Positions 9,036 to 63,795 of a DNA stretch of 64,000 nt are shown here, in pieces. The notes below the pieces were generated by a model. That model was not told the origin of the DNA. It saw only the letters and a program-made list of their open reading frames with translations, and searched no databases. Made by a program: the position numbers and the translations under genes. How positions within the stretch are numbered: the first letter of the stretch is position 1; each line of letters opens with the position of its first letter. The stretch lies in NCBI RefSeq assembly GCF_988243305.1, contig NZ_OZ547136.1; one strand, written 5' to 3'.

Positions 9036-9409
9036 TTTTTGACCTGCTCTTCATGCATTATGGGGTAAATCTTCACCCCCAGACGTCCACCAGATACTGG
9101 CTGACCACGAACGATATTGATTTCATCAAACTGCTCATCGTCCATTAACACTCCCGCATGCGTCAGCGCATCCAGCGGTGCTTTCAGGATATTGTCCAGG
9201 TCGCGACGACGCTTATCCGGTGGCTCTGCAATCACCTTTATCGCCAGCCTTCCGGACAGGCTTAATTTCAGCCGCTGCTGGCGAACAATAAGCGCCACAG
9301 CCCGGCGATAACGCTTTCCCTCCTCCGAGATAAAATATGTGCTGCCACGGCGTCGCCAGTAAGTGTTCACCGTCGGCGGGTAAGGTAAAACCAAATCTAT
9401 GAGCATCAC
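9032..9409 (-). CDS. rusA: RusA Holliday-junction resolvase
   Basis: The ORF MMLIDLVLPYPPTVNTYWRRRGSTYFISEEGKRYR...DLDNILKAPLDALTHAGVLMDDEQ carries RusA family motifs. Confidence 0.9.
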   Translation of the reverse strand: MMLIDLVLPYPPTVNTYWRRRGSTYFISEEGKRYRRAVALIVRQQRLKLSLSGRLAIKVIAEPPDKRRRDLDNILKAPLDALTHAGVLMDDEQFDEINIVRGQPVSGGRLGVKIYPIMHEEQVKK

Positions 9410-9418
9410 TCACCTCTT

Positions 9419-10468
9419 TTACCCAAGCACGCCAGTTGCAAAGGCGTGATCAAGAAAACGAAAAATTAAATCAACCTGAGAACCATGCTTTTCTTCGAAC
9501 GCCAGAGGATCCGCATGAAGCTCGTTGTGATGCTCCCGACACAGCGGTAGCGTGAAAATATCGTGAGATTTTGTCCCCATTCCGCCCTGACCATGACCAA
9601 TCAGGTGATGGGGATCGTCGGCTGGCTTACCACAATACGCACACGGCTGTGTCTTCACCCAGCGTGTGTATTTCTCGTTAACCCAGCGGCGACGTTTAGG
9701 TCGTTTCATGAAAGATTCCGGAGACTCAGGATCAACGGCAATGCTGACCACCGTCTTTTCCTGTGGTGGGTTCTGTTGCTGGTGGGCGTGAGGCAGCGGC
9801 GCAAGATTTTTTGTGCGCTGTTTCAGTATGCTGGTGGCGGTCTGCTCTCCCGGTACGATGTCGCTTTCACGGTACATTGAGCGGATTTTTTCCGCACGCA
9901 ACCCCAGCGAACGACGTAATACCGCTTCCGGTAGCGCGTCCGCCACCTGATTGCGGACCGCCCACCAGGATAATTCAGCCAGCGATAATTCCCGCTCCTG
10001 TGTGCCATTCATTGCGTGACGAATGACGTCAATCATCCATGCTGACAAGTTTTGGTGAGCAAGTTGCTCAAGTGATTCGGAGGTCTGGTCACGCAACTGG
10101 TTGTCGCAGTGCCAGCACAACACCATTGCGCCGGTACCATAACGGTGAATGACGGTTTCGCTGTGATGATAATCGCCGTGTGGCCACTGGCAGGATTTAA
10201 TATGGCGCAACAGCCAGTCAGACAATGCACCAGCACCACCAGCAGCACGAATCACCCGTGCGTTACTGAAAAACGGCAGCAATGTTTTGTCTTCCACCAG
10301 CGGCTGGCGAACGGCAGGAACGCCCCCGGACGGCAGATTACGCATGCTTTTCGGTTCCGGCTCCACCAGTACCCGGGTATTGTGGAATACCGGCATGGAT
10401 TCACGGCCCGGCTTAACGATCACCAGCCCGAGTTCCGGTACCAGAACAGGTCGAAGTAATACTCGCAC
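9419..10468 (-). CDS. ydfU: DUF968 protein YdfU
   Basis: The 349-aa ORF MRVLLRPVLVPELGLV...CAYCGKPADDPHHLIGHGQGGMGTKSHD... is recognised as Qin YdfU. It has an HNH-like C-terminus. Confidence 0.85.
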   Translation of the reverse strand: MRVLLRPVLVPELGLVIVKPGRESMPVFHNTRVLVEPEPKSMRNLPSGGVPAVRQPLVEDKTLLPFFSNARVIRAAGGAGALSDWLLRHIKSCQWPHGDYHHSETVIHRYGTGAMVLCWHCDNQLRDQTSESLEQLAHQNLSAWMIDVIRHAMNGTQERELSLAELSWWAVRNQVADALPEAVLRRSLGLRAEKIRSMYRESDIVPGEQTATSILKQRTKNLAPLPHAHQQQNPPQEKTVVSIAVDPESPESFMKRPKRRRWVNEKYTRWVKTQPCAYCGKPADDPHHLIGHGQGGMGTKSHDIFTLPLCREHHNELHADPLAFEEKHGSQVDLIFRFLDHAFATGVLG

Positions 10469-48329: not shown

Positions 48330-48466
48330 ATGGCAAAGCCGATCATCACGCTCAATGGCCTAAAAATCGTCATTATGTTGGGAATGCTGGTCATTATTCT
48401 CTGCGGTATCCGTTTTGCCGCCGAGATCATCGTGCCGTTTATTCTCGCATTATTTATTGCTGTTAT
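48330..48466 (+). pseudogene. tqsA: tqsA (ydgG) 5' fragment, codons 1-45, interrupted by the satellite
   Basis: It encodes [46 protein letters not shown], then runs into element sequence (YNLFHITR-stop). Confidence 0.9.
48458..48466. repeat. attL core / target duplication TGCTGTTAT
   Basis: An identical 9-mer occurs at 63787-63795. The tqsA sequence is continuous if one copy plus the insert is removed. Confidence 0.85.
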
Positions 48467-48540
48467 ATATAACTTATTTCACATAACACGTTGATTTAAT
48501 TAAATAATTTTCACCGCAAAAAGTGCCAAAAATCGCAAAA

Positions 48541-48599
48541 TGACTACACCAGTGACTACACCGTTCGGTGCACTGTATGAAACAACGTGGAACAAATAG
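48541..48599. repeat. Left-arm repeat block: TGACTACACC-AGTGACTACACC followed by ..GAAACAACGTGGAACAA
   Basis: It is homologous, in direct orientation, to the block at 63636-63705 just inside the other end. These are likely integrase arm-type sites. Confidence 0.7.
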
Positions 48600-48825
48600 A
48601 CACAAGAAATATACAGGCGGATCATCTTTCCAGGGGGAAGCGCACCAATTCATGAGGGGCGTTAATGTCGATATGGGGATCCCCACCTACCGGAATTTTT
48701 TTCCGGTTAAACGTTAATCAGGCTGGTGGGCTTTACCTGTTCGGTAGGTGTTATGATTATCGTAATACCTTTCCCCCAATGGGGTAAAAGCATCAACCGT
48801 AACGAAAGTCGTTATGGTTGCCACT

Positions 48826-49526: not shown

Positions 49527-51188
49527 TTACACCCCGCTAAATTCTTCCAGTTTCTGGCGGTGGCTGTCGCTTATATCAAAAGCAAAATCCTCATGCTCTG
49601 CCTGGAATGTACCAAACGCCATCAGCGCCGCCACGCTCGGGTCTATCTTGTTCGGTGATTTTTTCTTGTTCGGCTTGATATTGGCGTTCGCGTCACTCTG
49701 CATCACGACGTTACTCATCGACCAGGACAACACCGGATCGCCACGATGCACAATCACCCTGCGGTTAACAAAAACTTCGAACGATTTCGCCGCCGGACTG
49801 AATCTGAGGTAGGTTTGCGGGAACGGCTCCACCTCAAAACCTGCCCCCTGTAATTGCGTTCTGAGATGCGTGGCGTTCCACGTATCAAAGCCCACCAGCC
49901 TGATATTAAATTTCTCCGCGTCCTGCATGATGTCATCTCTGATCCGGTCGTAATCAATGCAGTCGCCAGGCGTTGTGCGTATCCAGCCTGCTTTAGCCCA
50001 CTGACGATAGATGGCGCGGTTTTTATTGGCGGGGTTCTGTAGCTGAAATTCCGGCAGATAGTGACGGGAAACCAGCATAATGGTTTTACCGACCGGAAAG
50101 GCATAGCACACGCTGGAAATATCGCTGGTTGATGATAAGTCCAGCCCCGCGTAACACTCCTGGCCGTGTAAATCTTCCTCCGTGAACGTTCCGGCACACT
50201 CAGCCCATGCGCCGTTACCCATCCACGGGGTAGCCCCCAGGCACCAGATATTAAATCGCTTTGTCATCATCTCCACCCACTGCGACGGAATACCCCGCGC
50301 TTTCTGGATGGTTGAGGCCAGTTTTTCACGATCCACGGAAACATCAATATTAGGGTTCGCCTTTATCCACATCGCCGGATCATCAACCTCGTTTTCGTCG
50401 TCCAGTTCGTAAATCAGTACAAAAATTGAATCGTTGACCTCTTCGCCGTCCAGGATCTGGCAGCAATAATCATAGTGCTGCTTACAGGCTGAAACGACGT
50501 TACTGCCTGATGTGGTAATAGCAAATAACAGCCCTTCGGGACGTGCGCCCATCCCCAGCTCAAGCGCGGAATAAACGCCGTTATCGGGGTGCAAGTGGTA
50601 TTCGTCCACGATGGAAAGGCTGGGGTTTGTTCCCTCGATGGTTGCCGCTTTTGCTGCCAGCGGCTTTAACAGGCTGTTGCTTTTCGGGTGTATCACCTTA
50701 TGCGCCTGAATATTCACCCGCCTGCGTAACGGTCGGGATAAAAGGCACATCTGACGCGCATCATCAAAGACGATCCGCGCCTGGTCACGGCTCACCGCTG
50801 CGGTGTAAATATCCTGCTGACCGTTCTCCATAATCAGAAACCAGTTAGCCAGAATCGCGGCGGTCGTGGATTTCGCATTTTTGCGCGGCACTTCGATAAA
50901 GGCGCTCGTGTATTTGCGCCGTCCGGTGGCCTTAACCTTAAAGCCGAGGATGCACGCAAAGGCGAACTGCTGCCACGGCTCCAGCTCAATGGGTCTGCCA
51001 CGCATCGGCCCTTTTACGTGCGGGCACACCCTGGAAAAGGCAATAAACCGCTCCACAACCTCACGATCGAACGTGTAAAGGGGGCTTTCAAGGTCCGAAA
51101 AGTACCGTTTAACGGCCTGTTTCAGCCGTTTACAGGCCGGAATTTTGCCCGTTTTTACGTCTTCTGCGTACTTATTCCAGGCGGTCAA
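49527..51188 (-). CDS. terL: Terminase large subunit
   Basis: The 553-aa ORF has an ATPase region (..EVPRKNAKSTTAAILANWF..) and a nuclease C-terminus. It overlaps terS. Confidence 0.9.
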   Translation of the reverse strand: MTAWNKYAEDVKTGKIPACKRLKQAVKRYFSDLESPLYTFDREVVERFIAFSRVCPHVKGPMRGRPIELEPWQQFAFACILGFKVKATGRRKYTSAFIEVPRKNAKSTTAAILANWFLIMENGQQDIYTAAVSRDQARIVFDDARQMCLLSRPLRRRVNIQAHKVIHPKSNSLLKPLAAKAATIEGTNPSLSIVDEYHLHPDNGVYSALELGMGARPEGLLFAITTSGSNVVSACKQHYDYCCQILDGEEVNDSIFVLIYELDDENEVDDPAMWIKANPNIDVSVDREKLASTIQKARGIPSQWVEMMTKRFNIWCLGATPWMGNGAWAECAGTFTEEDLHGQECYAGLDLSSTSDISSVCYAFPVGKTIMLVSRHYLPEFQLQNPANKNRAIYRQWAKAGWIRTTPGDCIDYDRIRDDIMQDAEKFNIRLVGFDTWNATHLRTQLQGAGFEVEPFPQTYLRFSPAAKSFEVFVNRRVIVHRGDPVLSWSMSNVVMQSDANANIKPNKKKSPNKIDPSVAALMAFGTFQAEHEDFAFDISDSHRQKLEEFSGV

Positions 51189-54710: not shown

Positions 54711-55868
54711 TTAATCGTCGTCCTGTGGCAGTTCCAGAATCTTGATCGCGTTCGAATCCACCACGCCACCGCCTAAATATTTCTGCGTGAAAATTTTGAT
54801 GAAGCCCGGCTCTGTGAGGTTGTCCGGTCTGGTGCGAACACCTGTTTCGTGATCAACAATGTAGTAACCGCGTTTGAAGTCACCCAGGGCAATAACGTTA
54901 TCCGGCATAAACTCCAGATATTCGACCGGAAGGCCCAGTAACGTATCAGGATCACCCGCCTGTAAACGGTCGCGCCAGATGTAATCACCGTTCGCGTTCT
55001 TCACCTTCTGAAGTTTTGCCGCCGTCGTGGAGTTAACCACCCAGACCGCGTTTTTGCGGTATTTTTTACGTAATGCAAATTTCAGGTCGATCAGCGGGTC
55101 CGCAGATGTCCACGCCAGAGATTCGGAAGGTTTAATTACCTGCAACGTACCAAAATCACGCTCTTTGTCGTTCTTCTCTGCACGGGGTACGGATAAAAAA
55201 CCTTTTGCTTTTTTGTCACCGTCGCCCACAACCAGATCGCTTTCTTCGGTTTCCGTGAAGGTGTCGCCAATCTCGCCCGTCAGCCATGAAAGGATGTCCA
55301 CATCGGAAAAATCCACGATTTCCTGTGTGGTGCGCGGGTACGCATAGACCGGATACAGCTTAATGCTCACCTCGTTAATCTGCGGGGTGCTGGTCTGTTC
55401 GCGTGTCTTACCCTCTTCACCGTGGTTAACGGTCGCACCGCCAGCGGAAACAAGCTGCTTAAACTCGTTGCTGCTGATTTTCTTCACGGTACAGATGCGG
55501 CGCATGGTGGACTCATCCGCCAGCATTCGCATGATTTCGGTGTTCAGTTCGGGGATAACGGTATAACCACCATCAGCGGGAACGCCTGTACTTAATGCGC
55601 GGGTTTCACCTGTCAGAATGTAGTTGCGTAGTTCTGCGGGGTCAGTGGTCTGGCTGCTTTTACCTGGCTTGCTGCGCTCTTCGTCTGCAATGGCTTCAAG
55701 GCGGGAAATGTCTTTATCGAGGGATTCAGCTTTAGCGCGTAATTCGTCAAATTTTGCGCCCTCAGCATCGTTAAGACTGCGGTTTTCTTTTTCCGCGTTC
55801 TCCAGCATGTCGCGCATCTGATTTTTAATGGCGGTTTTCTGCTGGCGTAATTCGATTATTCTCGGCAT
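54711..55868 (-). CDS. Major capsid protein (HK97 fold) with an N-terminal coiled-coil delta domain
   Basis: I trimmed the start to MPRIIELRQQKTAIKNQMRDMLENAEKENRSLNDAEGAKFDELRAKAESLDKDISRLE.. (385 aa). Confidence 0.9.
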   Translation of the reverse strand: MPRIIELRQQKTAIKNQMRDMLENAEKENRSLNDAEGAKFDELRAKAESLDKDISRLEAIADEERSKPGKSSQTTDPAELRNYILTGETRALSTGVPADGGYTVIPELNTEIMRMLADESTMRRICTVKKISSNEFKQLVSAGGATVNHGEEGKTREQTSTPQINEVSIKLYPVYAYPRTTQEIVDFSDVDILSWLTGEIGDTFTETEESDLVVGDGDKKAKGFLSVPRAEKNDKERDFGTLQVIKPSESLAWTSADPLIDLKFALRKKYRKNAVWVVNSTTAAKLQKVKNANGDYIWRDRLQAGDPDTLLGLPVEYLEFMPDNVIALGDFKRGYYIVDHETGVRTRPDNLTEPGFIKIFTQKYLGGGVVDSNAIKILELPQDDD

Positions 55869-56120
55869 AAAAAAAAGTCCTGGGGTTAAGTAAGGAACTC
55901 CAGGACGCGGCAAACACTCAACCGTTTTTCATAAGGAAATCAGCAATCGCACCGATCGTTTTCCCGCCTGGTAATGAATATTGGCGAGCACATTAACAGG
56001 CGGGAAAGTGGCCCCAGCGTCCTGGCACCACGGGCGAGAATAATCATGATTCAGTTCGGGTAAAATATGCCGATCCGCTCAGTGAACAACGTGGAACAAC
56101 CACGAACAAATAATTTACAA

Positions 56121-56150
56121 AAAATAACAAAAAGCCGGATTGCTCCGGCT
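56121..56150 (-). terminator. Intrinsic terminator (AGCCGGAGCAATCCGGCT + U-run)
   Basis: It has a 7-bp stem followed by TTTTTGTTATTTT on the minus strand, directly after the 74-aa ORF. It is a near-copy of the hairpin at 56490-56513. Confidence 0.7.
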
Positions 56151-56169
56151 GTATGTGCTGTATGGGTGC

Positions 56170-56489: not shown

Positions 56490-56513
56490 AAAAAAAGCCG
56501 GATTTCTCCGGCT
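56490..56513 (-). terminator. Intrinsic terminator (AGCCGGAGAAATCCGGCT + U-run)
   Basis: This hairpin is a paralogue of the one at 56121-56150. It lies directly after the PerC-like ORF. Confidence 0.7.
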
Positions 56514-56563
56514 GTGTGATTAGCTGTCCTGGTAATTGCGCCATATTTCATCACCAGCACCAT

Positions 56564-57212: not shown

Positions 57213-57460
57213 AATTCCACCTCTCCGGTTTTAACGTTGATGGTTGTTACCTGTTCCGCTTCGGCAATCTCCCGTTCTGTCAGCGTGGCAAAGTTTGCCG
57301 CCGCCGTGGTCATGAATGCGCTTATCAGGTCGGGATGTTCCTTCGCGTATCCTTCCCGCGTGTGGCGGTCTATCGTTCTGATTGCCACCTTTAAAGCGTG
57401 CTCAGTCATGTCTAACGCTTTATATTTTGGCTCTGTTCTGTCTCTGCGTTTTTGGGTCAT
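57209..57460 (-). CDS. Hypothetical protein (83 aa)
   Basis: I trimmed the start to MTQKRRDRTEPKYKALDMTEHALKV.. with a GAGAGG SD. It overlaps the ssb start. Confidence 0.45.
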   Translation of the reverse strand: MTQKRRDRTEPKYKALDMTEHALKVAIRTIDRHTREGYAKEHPDLISAFMTTAAANFATLTEREIAEAEQVTTINVKTGEVEL

Positions 57461-57662
57461 TTCTCGCAACCTCTCACTTTTTCGCCTCACTTTTTCAAGC
57501 GTCTCACTTCGTCGCAGTTGGGATTTTCGGTTTTTCTATGTGTGTGTTTCATAAGTATTTTTTTACCCCTCACTTTTGAGGATGTATACAGGTCGAAAAG
57601 TGAGGGAGAGCGGGCTAATTTTGGCCCTCTTTCTATCCCCCTCGCTTTTGCTCCTCACTTTT
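57461..57662. repeat. ori: Replication-origin-like iteron field (CTCACTTTT x6-7, one inverted pair, AT-rich core)
   Basis: Iterons occur at 57473, 57486, 57503, 57569, 57596 (inverted), 57641 (variant) and 57654. The AT-rich stretch TTCATAAGTATTTTTTTAC lies immediately 3' of the rep gene. Confidence 0.7.
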
Positions 57663-59819: not shown

Positions 59820-60034
59820 AACCCCCCCCCATTTTCACAATCAGCAACAAGAATATTTTTAGCGTCATTCAGCGACCGCGTTGCGATGTATCGGATACAT
59901 TCCAGGGCGAACTGTGTCCGGTCTTTCTGTTCTTCTCCCTGCGCAAGCTCTGCAGTGCATTCAATATCGATAAGCGCGTGCATCAGCGTAGTGAGCGCGG
60001 CGGCTGCTGCGTCCGGTGTGGTTTTATTGCACAT
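59792..60034 (-). CDS. Hypothetical protein (80 aa)
   Basis: I trimmed the start to MCNKTTPDAAAAALTTLMHALIDIE.. An AGGAGG SD lies 6 nt upstream. The 3' end runs through the G9 tract. Confidence 0.5.
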   Translation of the reverse strand: MCNKTTPDAAAAALTTLMHALIDIECTAELAQGEEQKDRTQFALECIRYIATRSLNDAKNILVADCENGGGLCVMIVLIP

Positions 60035-60224
60035 GGCACACCTCCTGACGAATACGGGCGGCGAATACAGCAACACAACCGGACGGGCAACGGCTACGCG
60101 CTTCGCGTTCCGTCCAGGCGGTTACGTGGATGATTTGAGATTCTCCGGCACTTAGTGCCAGAAAACGCCACACAAAGGCCGTTTGTGTGTGTATAAGGCG
60201 TGGTATATGATTTACGGCAACCAT
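60024..60224 (-). CDS. Icd-like (host cell-division inhibitor-like) small protein, first gene of the early operon
   Basis: It encodes MVAVNHIPRLIHTQTAFVWRFLALSAGESQIIHVTAWTEREARSRCPSGCVAVFAARIRQEVCHVQ (66 aa) with a GGAG SD. The W.F.A....EAR....FAAR pattern resembles P4-type Icd-like proteins as I recall them. Confidence 0.5.
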   Translation of the reverse strand: MVAVNHIPRLIHTQTAFVWRFLALSAGESQIIHVTAWTEREARSRCPSGCVAVFAARIRQEVCHVQ

Positions 60225-60286
60225 AACGGCTCCTAGTTTACGTTGTTGGTTAGACGCCCCGTATGTGTTCCCAGCACTGCGGGGCG

Positions 60287-60361
60287 TTGATTTTTGTGTA
60301 ATGGCAAGTACAATGGTAATTACCATGTAGGTATAGTAATGAAGGGTAATTACCATGTCAA
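60287..60361. promoter_or_regulatory. Overlapping opposed promoters plus two copies of the operator GGTAATTACCATGT
   Basis: The plus strand reads TTGATT(60287)-16-TACAAT(60309). The minus strand reads TTGACA(60361-60356)-17-TACTAT(60338-60333). The operators are at 60313-60326 (14-bp perfect palindrome) and 60345-60354. Confidence 0.6.
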
Positions 60362-60528
60362 CACCATTAGAAAAACGTTCGCCTCCATACCAAATGCGAT
60401 TACCGGAAGACTTCAGAGCGCAGCTAGAAGAAGCAGCTAAGGCCGATGGCGACACATCTTTAGCCACTTGGATTAAACGCGTTCTCCGCAAAGAATTACA
60501 GCAACGCGGCATAGAGCCAAAAGGTTGA
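60355..60528 (+). CDS. Arc/Mnt-type ribbon-helix-helix repressor (57 aa)
   Basis: I translated it by hand: MSTPLEKRSPPYQMRLPEDFRAQLEEAAKADGDTSLATWIKRVLRKELQQRGIEPKG. It has the classic RHH pattern. It is not in the ORF track. Confidence 0.7.
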   Translation: MSTPLEKRSPPYQMRLPEDFRAQLEEAAKADGDTSLATWIKRVLRKELQQRGIEPKG

Positions 60529-60549
60529 ATTTCAGAAGGAGATAAAATA

Positions 60550-60702
60550 ATGAACTGGCTGTTACATACCCTCCCAGGTCGCATTCTCATTGCACTAATT
60601 ATTTTATGGATTTTGTACCAATTCGGTTTTTTCGATTCGCTTTGGAAGCCTGACTGTTCCGTTAACCCTGGCGATGTACTGAAAGGCTGTAAAAATGGCT
60701 GA
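60550..60702 (+). CDS. Small single-TM protein (50 aa) co-transcribed with the RHH repressor
   Basis: An AAGGAG SD lies 8 nt upstream. It encodes MNWLLHTLPGRILIALIILWILYQFGFFDSLWKPDCSVNPGDVLKGCKNG and is followed by the hairpin CCCTCTTAAAGAGGG. Confidence 0.5.
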   Translation: MNWLLHTLPGRILIALIILWILYQFGFFDSLWKPDCSVNPGDVLKGCKNG

Positions 60703-61057
60703 TCAGGGTTACTCCCTGTAATGCCTTTAACTGGCCCTCTTAAAGAGGGTTGGTTATCTTCGCAGCTCTCTACGTTTTTCGTCGGAACCTCTGAACCTAA
60801 GCAGTGTTGATGTTCAGGAGAACCCGAATACTGTTCGTGTTCGTTGCTCGCCAATTCTCGCGTTTCGCGATAATCAAAATGATTCAATGGGTTGAGATGT
60901 CCGTACGTTAAACGTACGCGGTTAATTTGTACATGCGAATTTCGTCGGCTCAAATTCTGCGCAACCCTGCTTGAGTTATGCAAATAGCACGCGGCTAACT
61001 CACAAGGATTTGAGCGCCCCCAAACGGGGGAGCGCAAAATTTTAGGCATAAGACGCA

Positions 61058-61771
61058 TCAGCGAATCTCCAACACTGACGATGAAGTGATCAGGCTGGCG
61101 AACGCATCCATACGGCGGGCAACCTCACGCACCGCATCGCCTGGACTCATGTCATTACGCACCGCCTCATTAAAGGCCGCCTGTTCGATTTTCTGCATCA
61201 CTACCAACAGCCCCAATTGCTGTTCGTCTGCGGTACCGCGTTCACCATCAGACAAACCAGCCACGCGGTTTTCAGCGCGGGCCAGATTGATGTAATGGTG
61301 CCGTTGTGCGCCCAGAGCTTTTAATCTGTCGCGGCTTTCGTGATAGCCAGGCAGGTACTCACGGCGGATAGGTTCTGCGGCGCGGCGCTTAGTGAATGCC
61401 TTCGTAACATCCAGTTTGAACTGGTTAATACGCTCAGGATCACGCCCTCGGGTGATACGCAGCAGATAGTCGAGCTGCGGCTCATTCAGCAGATAACTAA
61501 TCTCAGGACGCCCACGCTTTCGGCCGGATTTTCCCGATTTCAAATCGGTTAATTCCTTGAGTGACTGACGAGGCAGTGATCCCAGCTCGCGCAATCTGCT
61601 CTGGTGCGATTTAATCGTCGCGCTTAAGCTTTCATGTTGTATTCCGGCTCGCTCTGAAATAACGCGGGAATCGATACGCGGCTCCGATTTGTGATTAATT
61701 AAAATATCGCTCTGGCTGGCTTCAGGGCGAACGAATCCCCGCCCACGTTCTGGCGTATATTCAATCTTCAT
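61058..61771 (-). CDS. Putative phage regulatory protein (Rha/antirepressor-like N-terminal region), 237 aa
   Basis: ..SEPRIDSRVISERAGIQHESLSATIKSHQSRLRELG.. and ..YLLNEPQLDYLL.. resemble Rha-type regulators. The assignment is tentative. Confidence 0.4.
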   Translation of the reverse strand: MKIEYTPERGRGFVRPEASQSDILINHKSEPRIDSRVISERAGIQHESLSATIKSHQSRLRELGSLPRQSLKELTDLKSGKSGRKRGRPEISYLLNEPQLDYLLRITRGRDPERINQFKLDVTKAFTKRRAAEPIRREYLPGYHESRDRLKALGAQRHHYINLARAENRVAGLSDGERGTADEQQLGLLVVMQKIEQAAFNEAVRNDMSPGDAVREVARRMDAFASLITSSSVLEIR

Positions 61772-61828: not shown

Positions 61829-62017
61829 TTAATGAACTGCCTTGCAGCTATCCTTCCAGGCCAGAACCTCGGATAAAGACCAGCCAACGGAACGACCGCC
61901 AAGTTTACGACGTGATGGGAATTGTCCGGCCTTTTCCAGGCGGTAGCGACACGTACGGCTAAGGCCGGTTAGTTTTTCGCATTCTTTTTCACGTATAAAC
62001 CGATCAGTGCTTAACAC
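61829..62017 (-). CDS. alpA: AlpA-family transcriptional regulator / excision factor
   Basis: The 62-aa ORF reads ..IREKECEKLTGLSRTCRYRLEKAGQFPSRRKLGGRSVGWSLSEVLAW.. Confidence 0.85.
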   Translation of the reverse strand: MLSTDRFIREKECEKLTGLSRTCRYRLEKAGQFPSRRKLGGRSVGWSLSEVLAWKDSCKAVH

Positions 62018-62199: not shown

Positions 62200-62381
62200 T
62201 CGCTCTTTAAAGAGTGATTCGCTAGTGTATAAAAAACCAGTAACGCATTAAAAATCAGCTACTTATAAATCCGTACGCTTTTTCGCCTCTTGTTCGTAGT
62301 TGTTCCACATTGTTGCTCATTGTTGCACGTTGTATCTGTTCGCATATACAGTATGCGCATACTGAAAAAACACGAAAAAAA

Positions 62382-63599
62382 TTATTTTCTTCTGGCTACT
62401 GGTAGCGTGGTTACGTTTTCATGTGTTCCCGCCAGTATCCCTAACCGCTCCGTCCACATATCCAGCGCATTGCGTTTAGCATCCAGATAACGGGAATGAT
62501 TATAAACTCGCTGCATTCCTGGCATCTGGTGGCCTGTAAGCTGCTCCACGACATGCGGATCAACGCCTAAATCGTTCAGCATGGTTGTAAAGGTGCGCCG
62601 GATGTCATGCAGTGACCAGTGAGGATGATTAAGCCTCCTGTGCGCTAATCTTCCATACTGCGATACGCTGGCCTCCTGTTTCACTTCCCCCAGCAATAAG
62701 CCCGTGTGCCTGTTCTGCTCCACCAGCTGCGTGACGAACGGCAGGATCGCTTCCGGTATGGGCCGGAATATTGCGACCTTCGTTTTGCTGTGCTCCTTCG
62801 GAACGGTCCATAGCATTTCCGTAAAATCCCACTCCCCGATCTCCGATAACCTCAGTTCTACCGTTCTGGCTCCGAAGACAATCAGGAGGCGGATTAACGC
62901 GACGTAGTAAGGGGAGAATATTTTTTTGTCCAGTGCCTGCAATAATTCGCCAAGTTCTTTGTTACTTAAGACACGTTCGCTTATATCCGGTTTTTTCCCA
63001 ACGTCCGCCACGTTCAGATCGTCCAGAACGTTGCTGATTGCATAGCGCCGCCTACGGCAGAACTTAAGCGCCTGTTTGCACGCCTGTAGCACGAATCCGG
63101 CAGTAACAGGCGTTCGCTTTGCCACCTGGTCAAAACAGGCCAGCCAGTGCCGTAGCTCGCATTTATCCAGCGGCATAGCACCAATCTGCTGTATTACGTG
63201 ATTATTAAGTCGCCTTTTCAGGGCGATATAATCCACGCGGTTTTCCTTTACGTAATACTCAAGCCAGTAGGTGAGCGCATCGCCAACCGTTACGGGCTTT
63301 AACGCTTCCTGTACGGTGTAATTCATCTCATGACGTGGATTTTTCCCCTCAGCCAGCCATGTGCGACACTGTGCGGCTTTTTCCCTGGCTGCTTTCAGGC
63401 TCAGATCAGGATAACTTCCCAGCTTAATGCGTTCGGGTCGTGTCTCCCTTCCCGTTCCGGCCCTGTATGTGAAATACCAGGTCAATTTCCCTGATGTTAA
63501 ATATTTCACGCTCAGGTTTCCGCCATCACTATAAAACGTGTTTTTCTCCGCTGGCTTACCATGAAGTTTCCTTAGCAAGGTATCGCTCAGTTTGTTCAT
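62382..63599 (-). CDS. int: P4-type tyrosine integrase
   Basis: The ATG start gives MNKLSDTLLRKLHGKPAEKNTFYSDGGNLSVKY.. (DUF4102-type arm-binding N-terminus). The catalytic region reads ..HDIRRTFTTML..LTGHQMPGMQRVYNH. The track ORF starts 4 codons earlier at a GTG. Confidence 0.9.
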   Translation of the reverse strand: MNKLSDTLLRKLHGKPAEKNTFYSDGGNLSVKYLTSGKLTWYFTYRAGTGRETRPERIKLGSYPDLSLKAAREKAAQCRTWLAEGKNPRHEMNYTVQEALKPVTVGDALTYWLEYYVKENRVDYIALKRRLNNHVIQQIGAMPLDKCELRHWLACFDQVAKRTPVTAGFVLQACKQALKFCRRRRYAISNVLDDLNVADVGKKPDISERVLSNKELGELLQALDKKIFSPYYVALIRLLIVFGARTVELRLSEIGEWDFTEMLWTVPKEHSKTKVAIFRPIPEAILPFVTQLVEQNRHTGLLLGEVKQEASVSQYGRLAHRRLNHPHWSLHDIRRTFTTMLNDLGVDPHVVEQLTGHQMPGMQRVYNHSRYLDAKRNALDMWTERLGILAGTHENVTTLPVARRK

Positions 63600-63635
63600 T
63601 GCTCTGCTCACGTTTTACCCCCTCTTTACGAAAAA

Positions 63636-63705
63636 GTGACTACACCAGTGACTACACCGATCGTTGCACAAAGGGCTACAACGTGAAACAAGCTGGAACA
63701 AGGAA
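63636..63705. repeat. Right-arm repeat block: GTGACTACACC-AGTGACTACACC followed by ..ACAACGTGAAACAAGCTGGAACAA
   Basis: This is the partner of the block at 48541-48599. It lies 25-95 bp upstream of the int start. Confidence 0.7.
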
Positions 63706-63786
63706 AATCACAAATCTGTTGATAATCAAAAACATAATGCACAGCCTGAAACATTATGAAACAGCAAAAAACACTAAATGATAAAA

Positions 63787-63795
63787 TGCTGTTAT
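63787..63795. repeat. attR core / target duplication TGCTGTTAT
   Basis: See the partner repeat at 48458-48466. Confidence 0.85.

Follow-up and report, generated by a model that had tools for sequence, protein, structure and literature searches.

A 64,000-nucleotide stretch of contig NZ_OZ547136.1 (assembly GCF_988243305.1; hereafter the window) carries an island in which one short repeated element recurs upstream of the major capsid gene, upstream of alpA and near both attachment (att) ends, raising the question of what this element is and which protein may read it. The island is a 15.3-kb capsid-forming phage-inducible chromosomal island (cf-PICI) inserted in tqsA and resembling EcCIEDL933, the type described in bioRxiv 10.1101/2022.09.08.507074. 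We propose, with a probability of roughly 0.6, that the element would be an operator array for AlpA, a winged-helix protein of the excisionase family, placed on the att arms, at alpA and at the capsid operon; this assignment draws on sequence comparison and on analogy with characterized directionality factors.

A preliminary description of the locus reported a ~28-bp element shared by the capsid and alpA upstream regions, about 85% identical in opposite orientations, and its coordinates and sequences are accurate. The reverse complement of 56082–56110 is TTTGTTCGTGGTTGTTCCACGTTGTTCAC and the plus strand at 62289–62318 is CTTGTTCGTAGTTGTTCCACATTGTTGCT; their 25-nt cores (56085–56109, minus strand, and 62290–62314, plus strand) agree at 23 of 25 positions in inverted relation and were returned by the repeat finder as repeat I1, 92% complementary. 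A degenerate form of the 25-mer matched only these two sites, against 0.00 expected from 100 shuffles, and the 14-mer core with up to two mismatches gave eight matches against 0.98 expected, seven of them inside the island (48582, 56086, 62300/62310/62320 and 63678/63688). Rather than one 28-mer, the element is a series of TTGTT-N5 units repeating strictly every 10 bp. Four arrays of at least three units occur in the window, all within the 15.3-kb island, whereas first-order Markov simulations (200 runs) gave an expectation of 0.015; in the window's 48 kb of host DNA there are none. Periods of 7–9, 11 and 13 bp gave no array of at least three units anywhere in the 64 kb, only period 10 doing so. 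A scan of the 64 kb with a position-weight matrix for three phased units found no site beyond the four arrays; the matrix was trained on these same four, and the scan therefore shows the absence of further copies and nothing more.

The capsid-side array, TTGTTCGTGG TTGTTCCACG TTGTTCACTG (56080–56109, minus strand), has three units, lies 217–241 bp before the capsid ATG (55868) and starts 23 nt after the intrinsic terminator at 56133–56150. Five units (62290–62339, plus strand) occupy the spacer between the stop of int (62382) and the start of alpA (62017), 273–326 bp ahead of the latter and inverted with respect to the other three arrays. The int-proximal att arm carries four units (63662–63701, minus strand) between a tandem ACTACACC pair and the core, with the match lying 66–90 bp ahead of the int start (63611), and the int-distal arm carries three (48576–48605, minus strand). 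The distances to the three genes, the adjacency of the capsid copy to a terminator and the shorter versions near both arms had all been claimed beforehand and are borne out here. The capsid-upstream and alpA-upstream arrays are removed from the nearer att end by 7.6 kb and 1.3 kb, respectively. Head-to-tail direct repeats one DNA turn apart, in at least three adjacent units, fit the operators of directionality factors. The core is short and loosely conserved, TTGT being invariant and the other positions degenerate, with a consensus of TTGTTCCACG across 43 distinct units. The arrays are almost certainly protein-binding sites, and very probably functional ones.

Comparison with related islands likewise upheld the element. 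It covered islands in tqsA (L001, L003–L005), at phoQ/roxA (L002, L006 and L025, the last being EcCICFT073), near tRNA-Asp (L007), at clpS/cspD (L008, L009), yifB (L010), allE (L026) and rcnR/thiM (L027). Arm arrays were found in all of them, and the four array positions are kept in every Escherichia coli/Shigella cf-PICI examined, at no fewer than five attachment sites (tqsA, phoQ/roxA, yifB, allE, rcnR/thiM). Islands with the window-type alpA allele have five to six units in the int–alpA spacer, EcCICFT073 having six; among spacer arrays of islands 74–78% identical in this region, TTGT is invariant in each unit and the other six positions drift. The capsid-proximal array is present in eight of eight annotated cf-PICI loci (the window, L001, L002, L005, L010, L012, L026 and L027) and was not found in six classical PICI loci (L003, L004, L006–L009), which carry lambda-type capsid-remodelling modules; L006 is the same island as EcCICFT073, and L007 shows only a weak two-unit match on the capsid side. 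The capsid-upstream copy is thus an addition specific to cf-PICIs, classical PICIs with the same int–alpA module being without it. The array recurs 242 nt ahead of the capsid ATG, with few single-base changes, in all of about 40 IMG/VR contigs whose capsids are 98–100% identical. Where the leader cannot be aligned, BLAST matches span 56139–56084 only, that is, the terminator tail, the box TTTTGTAAATTAT and the array.

AlpA as the candidate reader of the arrays

The genes int (62382–63611, minus strand; a 409-aa tyrosine recombinase with an Arm-DNA-bind_3 N-domain) and alpA (61829–62017, minus strand; 62 aa, Pfam Phage_AlpA, PF05930, E 5.4e-17) are the only ones found with the arrays in all the islands. 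PerC, the Rha-like gene and the replication and TerS modules vary or are missing while the arrays persist. PerC and the 237-aa Rha-like protein, two binders suggested by the preliminary description, are excluded, since several islands lack them yet retain every array. AlpA, also named there, is the best candidate, given the analogy with TorI sites, the contact residues, an array flavour that follows the alpA allele, published autoactivation and the effect of overexpression, and we consider it likely that this protein binds the arrays.

TorI of the KplE1 (CPS-53) prophage of E. coli K-12 is, like AlpA, a small winged-helix directionality factor; the two are 29% identical over 42 residues (E 6e-5), TorI falling below the PF05930 threshold. 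Residues Y28 and R45, needed for DNA binding by TorI (PMC3509656), correspond to Y25 and R42 of AlpA. The mapped TorI sites in KplE1 attL have GTTCG/GATCG/GTCCG cores and lie between the P′ arm-type sites of IntS and the core; three 8-bp sites 2 nt apart form a block with a 10-bp period over 28 bp, which abuts the −35 of the int promoter (PMC2951348). The sequence of this region is cAGTTCGtcatGGTTCGcttcAGATCGttgaca. The window resembles it in the order of int, tandem pair, phased array and core, in the GTTCG-like core of the unit and in the Arm-DNA-bind_3 domain shared by IntS and the island Int. TorI differs in that its sites occupy one arm only, with no known site at a structural-gene operon, and in that it represses PintS whereas PICI AlpA is an activator.

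A second parallel is provided by Apl of phage 186, Cox of P2 and Vis of P4, which bind direct repeats one helical turn apart both at att and in distant promoter arrays; three adjacent units are needed, and more units give higher apparent affinity (PMC7498355; for dual-purpose directionality factors see also RdfS, PMC11963761). Vis is the P4 homologue of PICI AlpA (PMC6092414). The likeness to this class lies in att-like arrays that also occur away from att, at 62290–62339 and 56080–56109. Vis acts on the late promoters of P4. Apl and Cox mainly repress early promoters at the lysis–lysogeny switch and recognize other motifs, whereas here a satellite's capsid/packaging operon is the target and activation is expected.

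The AlpA proteins of EcCICFT073 and EcCIEDL933 offer a further comparison, being the same protein (>90% identity) with the same int–alpA spacer and a six-unit array. They are required for excision, replication and transfer, and autoactivate (PMC6092414; bioRxiv 10.1101/2022.09.08.507074). In EcCICFT073, cloned alpA alone activates its own promoter PalpA and leaves Pint unaffected (PMC6092414); an alpA mutation abolishes induction and transfer of EcCIEDL933 (bioRxiv 10.1101/2022.09.08.507074), and overexpression of alpA is by itself enough to make EcCIEDL933 reproduce, as is done for capsid purification (bioRxiv 10.1101/2025.02.11.637232). No published DNA target of PICI AlpA was found in the literature that could be searched, and the array proposed here would be that target. 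The antiterminator model of Pseudomonas aeruginosa AlpA was rejected, as that protein is an unrelated Q-like one and not a PF05930 relative: it is helical, much larger and of 21Q-like fold, recognizes a GGGACG element placed between −35 and −10, and is loaded onto RNA polymerase (PMC7969949, PMC9371919). The GGGACG element is absent here, and the two systems have in common only the name and terminators near their targets.

The flavour of the arrays follows the alpA allele. A-type alleles go with TTGTTCCACG, and B/C-type alleles (~60% identical) with TTGTTCGT/GTTCG on the arms and with CGAAC ×3 upstream of alpA in place of TTGTTCC units. The island L008 combines an Int and a pair of the L002 type with a B-type AlpA and B-type arrays.

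On the att arms the arrays can be told apart from candidate integrase sites. A 76-nt direct repeat (D2) on both arms comprises the pair (A/G)TGACTACACC-AGTGACTACACC, a gap of ~20 nt and the phased AACAA array. The tandem pair adjoins the int start as GTGACTACACC-AGTGACTACACC (63636–63658, plus strand) and recurs on the distal arm as ATGACTACACC-AGTGACTACACC (48540–48562, plus strand). Within the window the ACTACACC pair is confined to the arms; the TTGTT array is also found at two internal sites. The pair follows Int: islands whose Int reads NLSVKYLTSGK (the window, L010) have (A/G)TGACTACACC, those with NLSVRHST(S/N)GL (L002, L006–L008) have ATT(A/G)ACTACACC, and the divergent Int of L027 goes with TGTGTGGTCAG ×2. 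Since it changes with the Int N-domain across islands, the pair is the candidate Int arm-type site. The arrays remain TTGTT-type across these changes, whereas the ACTACACC/ACCACAC pair changes, so the sequence of the arrays does not track Int N-domain specificity as that of integrase arm-type sites would. From the int start the order is pair, array, three weaker TGTTT units at 10-bp spacing (63747–63776, minus strand, read from the sequence) and core. In L008 and L009, CGAACAC ×2 stands where the window has the weaker TGTTT units. CP4-57 of MG1655, the prophage from which AlpA takes its name, shows this arm layout too in its attL (L028, 560–650): a tandem TAGGCCCA pair and an inverted copy adjoin intA, and TCCGAA repeats stand two helical turns apart towards the core.

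The earlier proposal of a single cis-element for one regulator thus stands insofar as the element is real, non-random and common to the arms, alpA and the capsid upstream region. The part that gives way is its role as a promoter element of int. The copy near int is present, but the copies on the arms make better sense as sites of recombination directionality (excisionase sites), because they lie between the candidate Int arm-type pair and the core, and because AlpA left Pint unchanged in the near-identical EcCICFT073 int–alpA module (PMC6092414). Both the sequence evidence and the analogies make it most likely that AlpA has two roles, that of a directionality factor at the arm arrays and that of a transcription factor at the alpA and capsid-operon arrays.

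The capsid operon leader and a second island lineage

The terminator at 56133–56150 (minus strand) closes the upstream replication/PerC/orf100 transcription unit, and a second one at 56496–56513 is a 93% identical copy (repeat D14); together they part the capsid operon from the upstream genes. The two hairpins (56129–56155 and 56492–56518) follow PerC and the 100-aa open reading frame (ORF), so placed that the small ORF resembles a terminator-flanked cassette. The box TTTTGTAAATTAT (56110–56122, minus strand) is directly 5′ of the capsid array. As TTTGTAAATT(A/T)T it occurs once per box-bearing cf-PICI locus, right before the three-unit array, across genera (for example at L013 3929, L014 9783, L015 9777, L026 9020 and L027 9021); L014 has one additional match outside the capsid region, and no box was found in the Gilliamella loci L016/L076 or in the classical PICIs. 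The box could be a promoter core, an UP-like element or the site of another factor.

A consensus sigma-70 scan of the 300-bp capsid leader found no promoter, which fits dependence on an activator. We propose a weak sigma-70 promoter at 56062–56089 (minus strand), read by eye and agreeing with consensus at 7 of 12 positions, with −35 TTGTTC within unit 3 (56084–56089), a 16-nt spacer and −10 TATTTT (56062–56067). It is proposed because TATTTT is kept at the same spacing in all window-type leaders, including that of L075, whose capsid is 70% identical and whose spacer has mostly diverged. We give even odds to a role of the capsid copy as a positive element for a promoter lying immediately downstream of it.

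From the observed arrays, their phasing, positions, conservation and co-variation we infer that AlpA binds them, in which direction it regulates, where the promoter lies and when it fires, as follows. AlpA protomers would bind TTGTT(C)-N4 units head-to-tail, one per helical turn. On the arms, the arrays beside the ACTACACC pairs, the candidate Int arm-type sites, would serve as directionality sites, bending the arms for excision, and the five to six units between int and alpA would mediate the published positive autoregulation of alpA. The three-unit copy of cf-PICIs sits past the packaging-operon terminator, with its last unit overlapping the −35 of the putative weak promoter (TTGTTC-16-TATTTT), so that bound AlpA would switch on the capsid/packaging operon. 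One protein would in this manner couple excision, its own amplification and capsid production, the smaller capsid array probably firing later, at a higher AlpA level.

The leader may hold a further layer of control. The 225-nt window-type leader RNA is unusually well folded (z −3.97); with so structured an RNA, extra control after initiation is possible. A hairpin GTCCTGGAGTT...AACCCCAGGAC followed by T8 (U8 in the RNA; 55869–55906, minus strand) abuts the capsid ATG, sequesters the AGGA ribosome-binding site and is kept in L075. Leader fold and hairpin together hint that the capsid operon may be controlled by attenuation, by antitermination or at translation. In EcCICFT073 (L025, ~9380–9440), a near-consensus promoter TTGCTC-16-TATAAT precedes the packaging module and is immediately followed by a strong hairpin and T6, a layout that may need an antiterminator.

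More distant cf-PICIs, with capsids 66–74% identical (Rosenbergiella, Citrobacter, Erwinia and several IMG/VR contigs), keep the same TTTGTAAATT(A/T)T box. There it is followed by three 10-bp TAC[CT][CT] (TACYY) units in place of TTGTT, and these islands encode an HTH_17 excisionase in place of AlpA. The TACYY motif was defined from the capsid arrays alone, and the loci were then scanned with it. In L015, three TACYY pairs phased at 10 bp were found outside the capsid site (the GGTATCC pair excluded), every one of them on an att arm and next to GGTATCC tandem pairs; this TACYY/GGTATCC arrangement recurs in L014, L072, L074 and L077, and GTACTT ×3 stands upstream of the HTH_17 excisionase gene. 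TACCC arrays in other genera, at one point considered a counter-example, resolved as this lineage's own arm motif TACYY. The lineage thus presents the same design with a different integrase, excisionase family and unit. Judging from these sequences, it is an independent replicate of the arrangement in AlpA islands, with repeats on the arms and ahead of the putative excisionase gene and a three-unit copy behind the capsid box. With a B-type AlpA, the capsid site of L075 reads TTGTGCGTGG TTGTTCGTGG TTGTTCAGCG.

It is tempting to go further, albeit as a doubtful extension: the three units that follow the TTTGTAAATTAT box may act as a swappable "address label" that wires a packaging module to the excisionase-type regulator of its island, control of capsids by the directionality factor being ancestral and general and the number of units setting a dose order. 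If so, TTGTTC would be the label of AlpA islands and TACYY that of HTH_17 islands, direct capsid control by the directionality factor would be an ancestral, general trait of capsid-forming satellites, and five to six units at alpA against three at the capsid operon would order the response by dose, with autoamplification and excision before capsids.

Cox, Apl, Vis and TorI are known examples of a directionality factor that doubles as a regulator. Neither the candidate AlpA box nor the lineage-matched cassette that follows the conserved box appears to have been described in the literature that could be searched. AlpA is the described master switch of Gram-negative PICIs, and a defined AlpA box (TTGTT-N5, at least three times, 10-bp phased) would yield a testable regulon, explain how a terminator-insulated packaging operon is turned on without helper functions and allow the arm sites of Int to be told from those of the excisionase in the att regions of PICIs. 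PICI annotation would benefit too, as would the engineering of PICI-based delivery particles with alpA-induced capsid production. The replicate in a second lineage suggests a general rule for rewiring packaging modules that move between satellites.

Competing explanations and rejected identities

Several observations sit uneasily with AlpA as the reader of all four arrays. The co-variation of allele and flavour comes from three B/C-type islands only, and the capsid array is the same in A-type and C-type AlpA islands, so there is no fine co-variation at that site. Both arms carry arrays, whereas directionality-factor sites are usually found on one arm and Int arm sites typically on both. The array ahead of alpA points the other way from those at the capsid gene and on the arms, and its geometry relative to RNA polymerase therefore differs. 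At the capsid operon the predicted promoter is weak, with its 7 of 12 consensus positions, and if the box held the −10, the array would lie inside the transcript and would act negatively. The leaders of L026 and L027 have a promoter-like TTTACA-16-TATGTT 13 nt downstream of the array, without overlap, so capsid-array geometry is not uniform. Finally, the IMG/VR contig L074 has an HTH_17 excisionase and TACYY arms, yet a TTGTG/CTGTTCG-type capsid array as in L071/L073, a mismatch that probably reflects module exchange.

The arrangement on both arms leads naturally to the view that the TTGTT arrays are themselves arm-type sites of the Int N-domain, with Int also acting upstream of alpA and of the capsid operon as a repressor or architectural protein. 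Int does carry an Arm-DNA-bind_3 domain, the arrays are in direct orientation on the two arms, as arm-type sites usually are, and in KplE1 IntS represses its own promoter through arm sites (PMC2951348). However, the longer tandem ACTACACC ×2 pair already stands near int and on both arms, nowhere else in the window, and tracks the Int N-domain; the arrays stay TTGTT-type across Int changes, and in L008 their flavour shifts with AlpA while Int and pair type are unchanged. Arm-type sites can adjoin at a spacing of ~10–11 bp, as in lambda P′1–3. The four to five conserved bases per unit are nevertheless typical of excisionase sites and not of 8–10-bp arm sites, and PalpA autoactivation was published with cloned alpA alone (PMC6092414). 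On balance we regard Int as an unlikely reader.

The capsid copy alone might be a recombination scar or module junction (an att-arm relic or an exchange hotspot) with no regulatory role, the arm and alpA arrays being functional. The terminator tail, box and array do form a mosaic boundary, BLAST matches H104–H110 covering 56139–56084 only and the leader beyond being unrelated; the copy resembles the distal arm past its units (27/35, D1), and L074 shows that modules are shuffled. Against this, there is no ACTACACC pair or core nearby, the array is nearly invariant in ~50 cf-PICI copies with two unrelated leaders and keeps a fixed distance to the conserved TATTTT, and the HTH_17 islands bear their lineage-matched repeat at the same position. 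We find this origin quite improbable, and still less probable a host reader of 10-bp phased repeats acting as an accessory factor, whether a response regulator of the OmpR/PhoB family (TorR or ArcA, for instance) or a nucleoid protein. Some units, among them TTGTTCACTG and TTGTTTCATA, appear to resemble the decameric tor box, CTGTTCATAT, and the host proteins IHF and Fis are normal parts of intasomes (PMC2951348), but the 48 kb of host DNA in the window hold no array of three or more units and the flavour of the units shifts with the alpA allele of the island. The second lineage, moreover, has an unlike unit (TACYY) at the same positions, which points to a specificity determinant encoded by the island.

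Other identities were rejected on simpler grounds. The arrays are not replication iterons, as they are kept in islands with replication modules of different kinds (RepA helicase, primase, DUF927) and the likely origin repeats are at 57451–57662; nor are they pac/cos or TerS sites, having four dispersed copies and being present also in classical PICIs with another TerS or none. As DnaA boxes, one unit per array reaches 7/9 and the consensus fails at positions 2–3. The LexA-like motif CTGTTCGCATATACAG (62336–62351; CTGT-N8-ACAG) has CCAG for ACAG in L001–L005 and is absent in L006, L007 and L010, and induction of alpA was reported to be SOS-independent (PMC6092414).

The LexA-like motif overlaps a perfect 16-bp palindrome, CAGTATGCGCATACTG (62349–62364), beside the alpA-upstream array, and the palindrome is kept in the closest islands only. 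A promoter scan upstream of alpA returned weak sites only. In the rcnR/thiM island (L027, 3500–3545), a hairpin with T8, whose loop includes two GTTCG units 10 bp apart, places a terminator directly ahead of the alpA start codon.

Gene content of the island

The island is bounded in tqsA by the 9-bp direct repeat TGCTGTTAT (left 48458–48466, plus strand; right 63787–63795), and this site is empty in most E. coli genomes. Its classification as a cf-PICI follows from int, alpA, replication genes, its own HK97-type packaging set, a size of ~15 kb and a PICI-specific att site. The major capsid gene (54711–55868, minus strand) is the first of the packaging operon and is followed by genes for a protease, portal, connectors, HNH, TerS and TerL, ending at 49527; ORFs and Pfam matches identify the module as a complete HK97-type packaging operon. 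Further minus-strand genes are those for the Rha-like protein, a RepA-type helicase, SSB and PerC, and the 100-aa ORF. In its alpA region the island is 98.9% identical to EDL933, and an island 98% identical in RefSeq bears the same annotation. The AlpA protein matches PDB 8C3T, an "AlpA family" protein, with E 2.2e-6; a literature search on this entry found nothing relevant, NCBIfam has no named family for AlpA, and an Rfam search of the island gave no credible family.

The 344-aa minus-strand ORF at 60024–61058 looks spurious: relatives have an annotated plus-strand YlcI/YnfO-family gene (60355–60528) in its place, as well as small Icd-like genes, and the stretch immediately downstream of alpA is known to be variable. 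Direct repeats that end in CCTCACTTTT (D9; 57451–57662) are found in the gap downstream of the RepA-helicase gene and probably mark the replication origin of the island.

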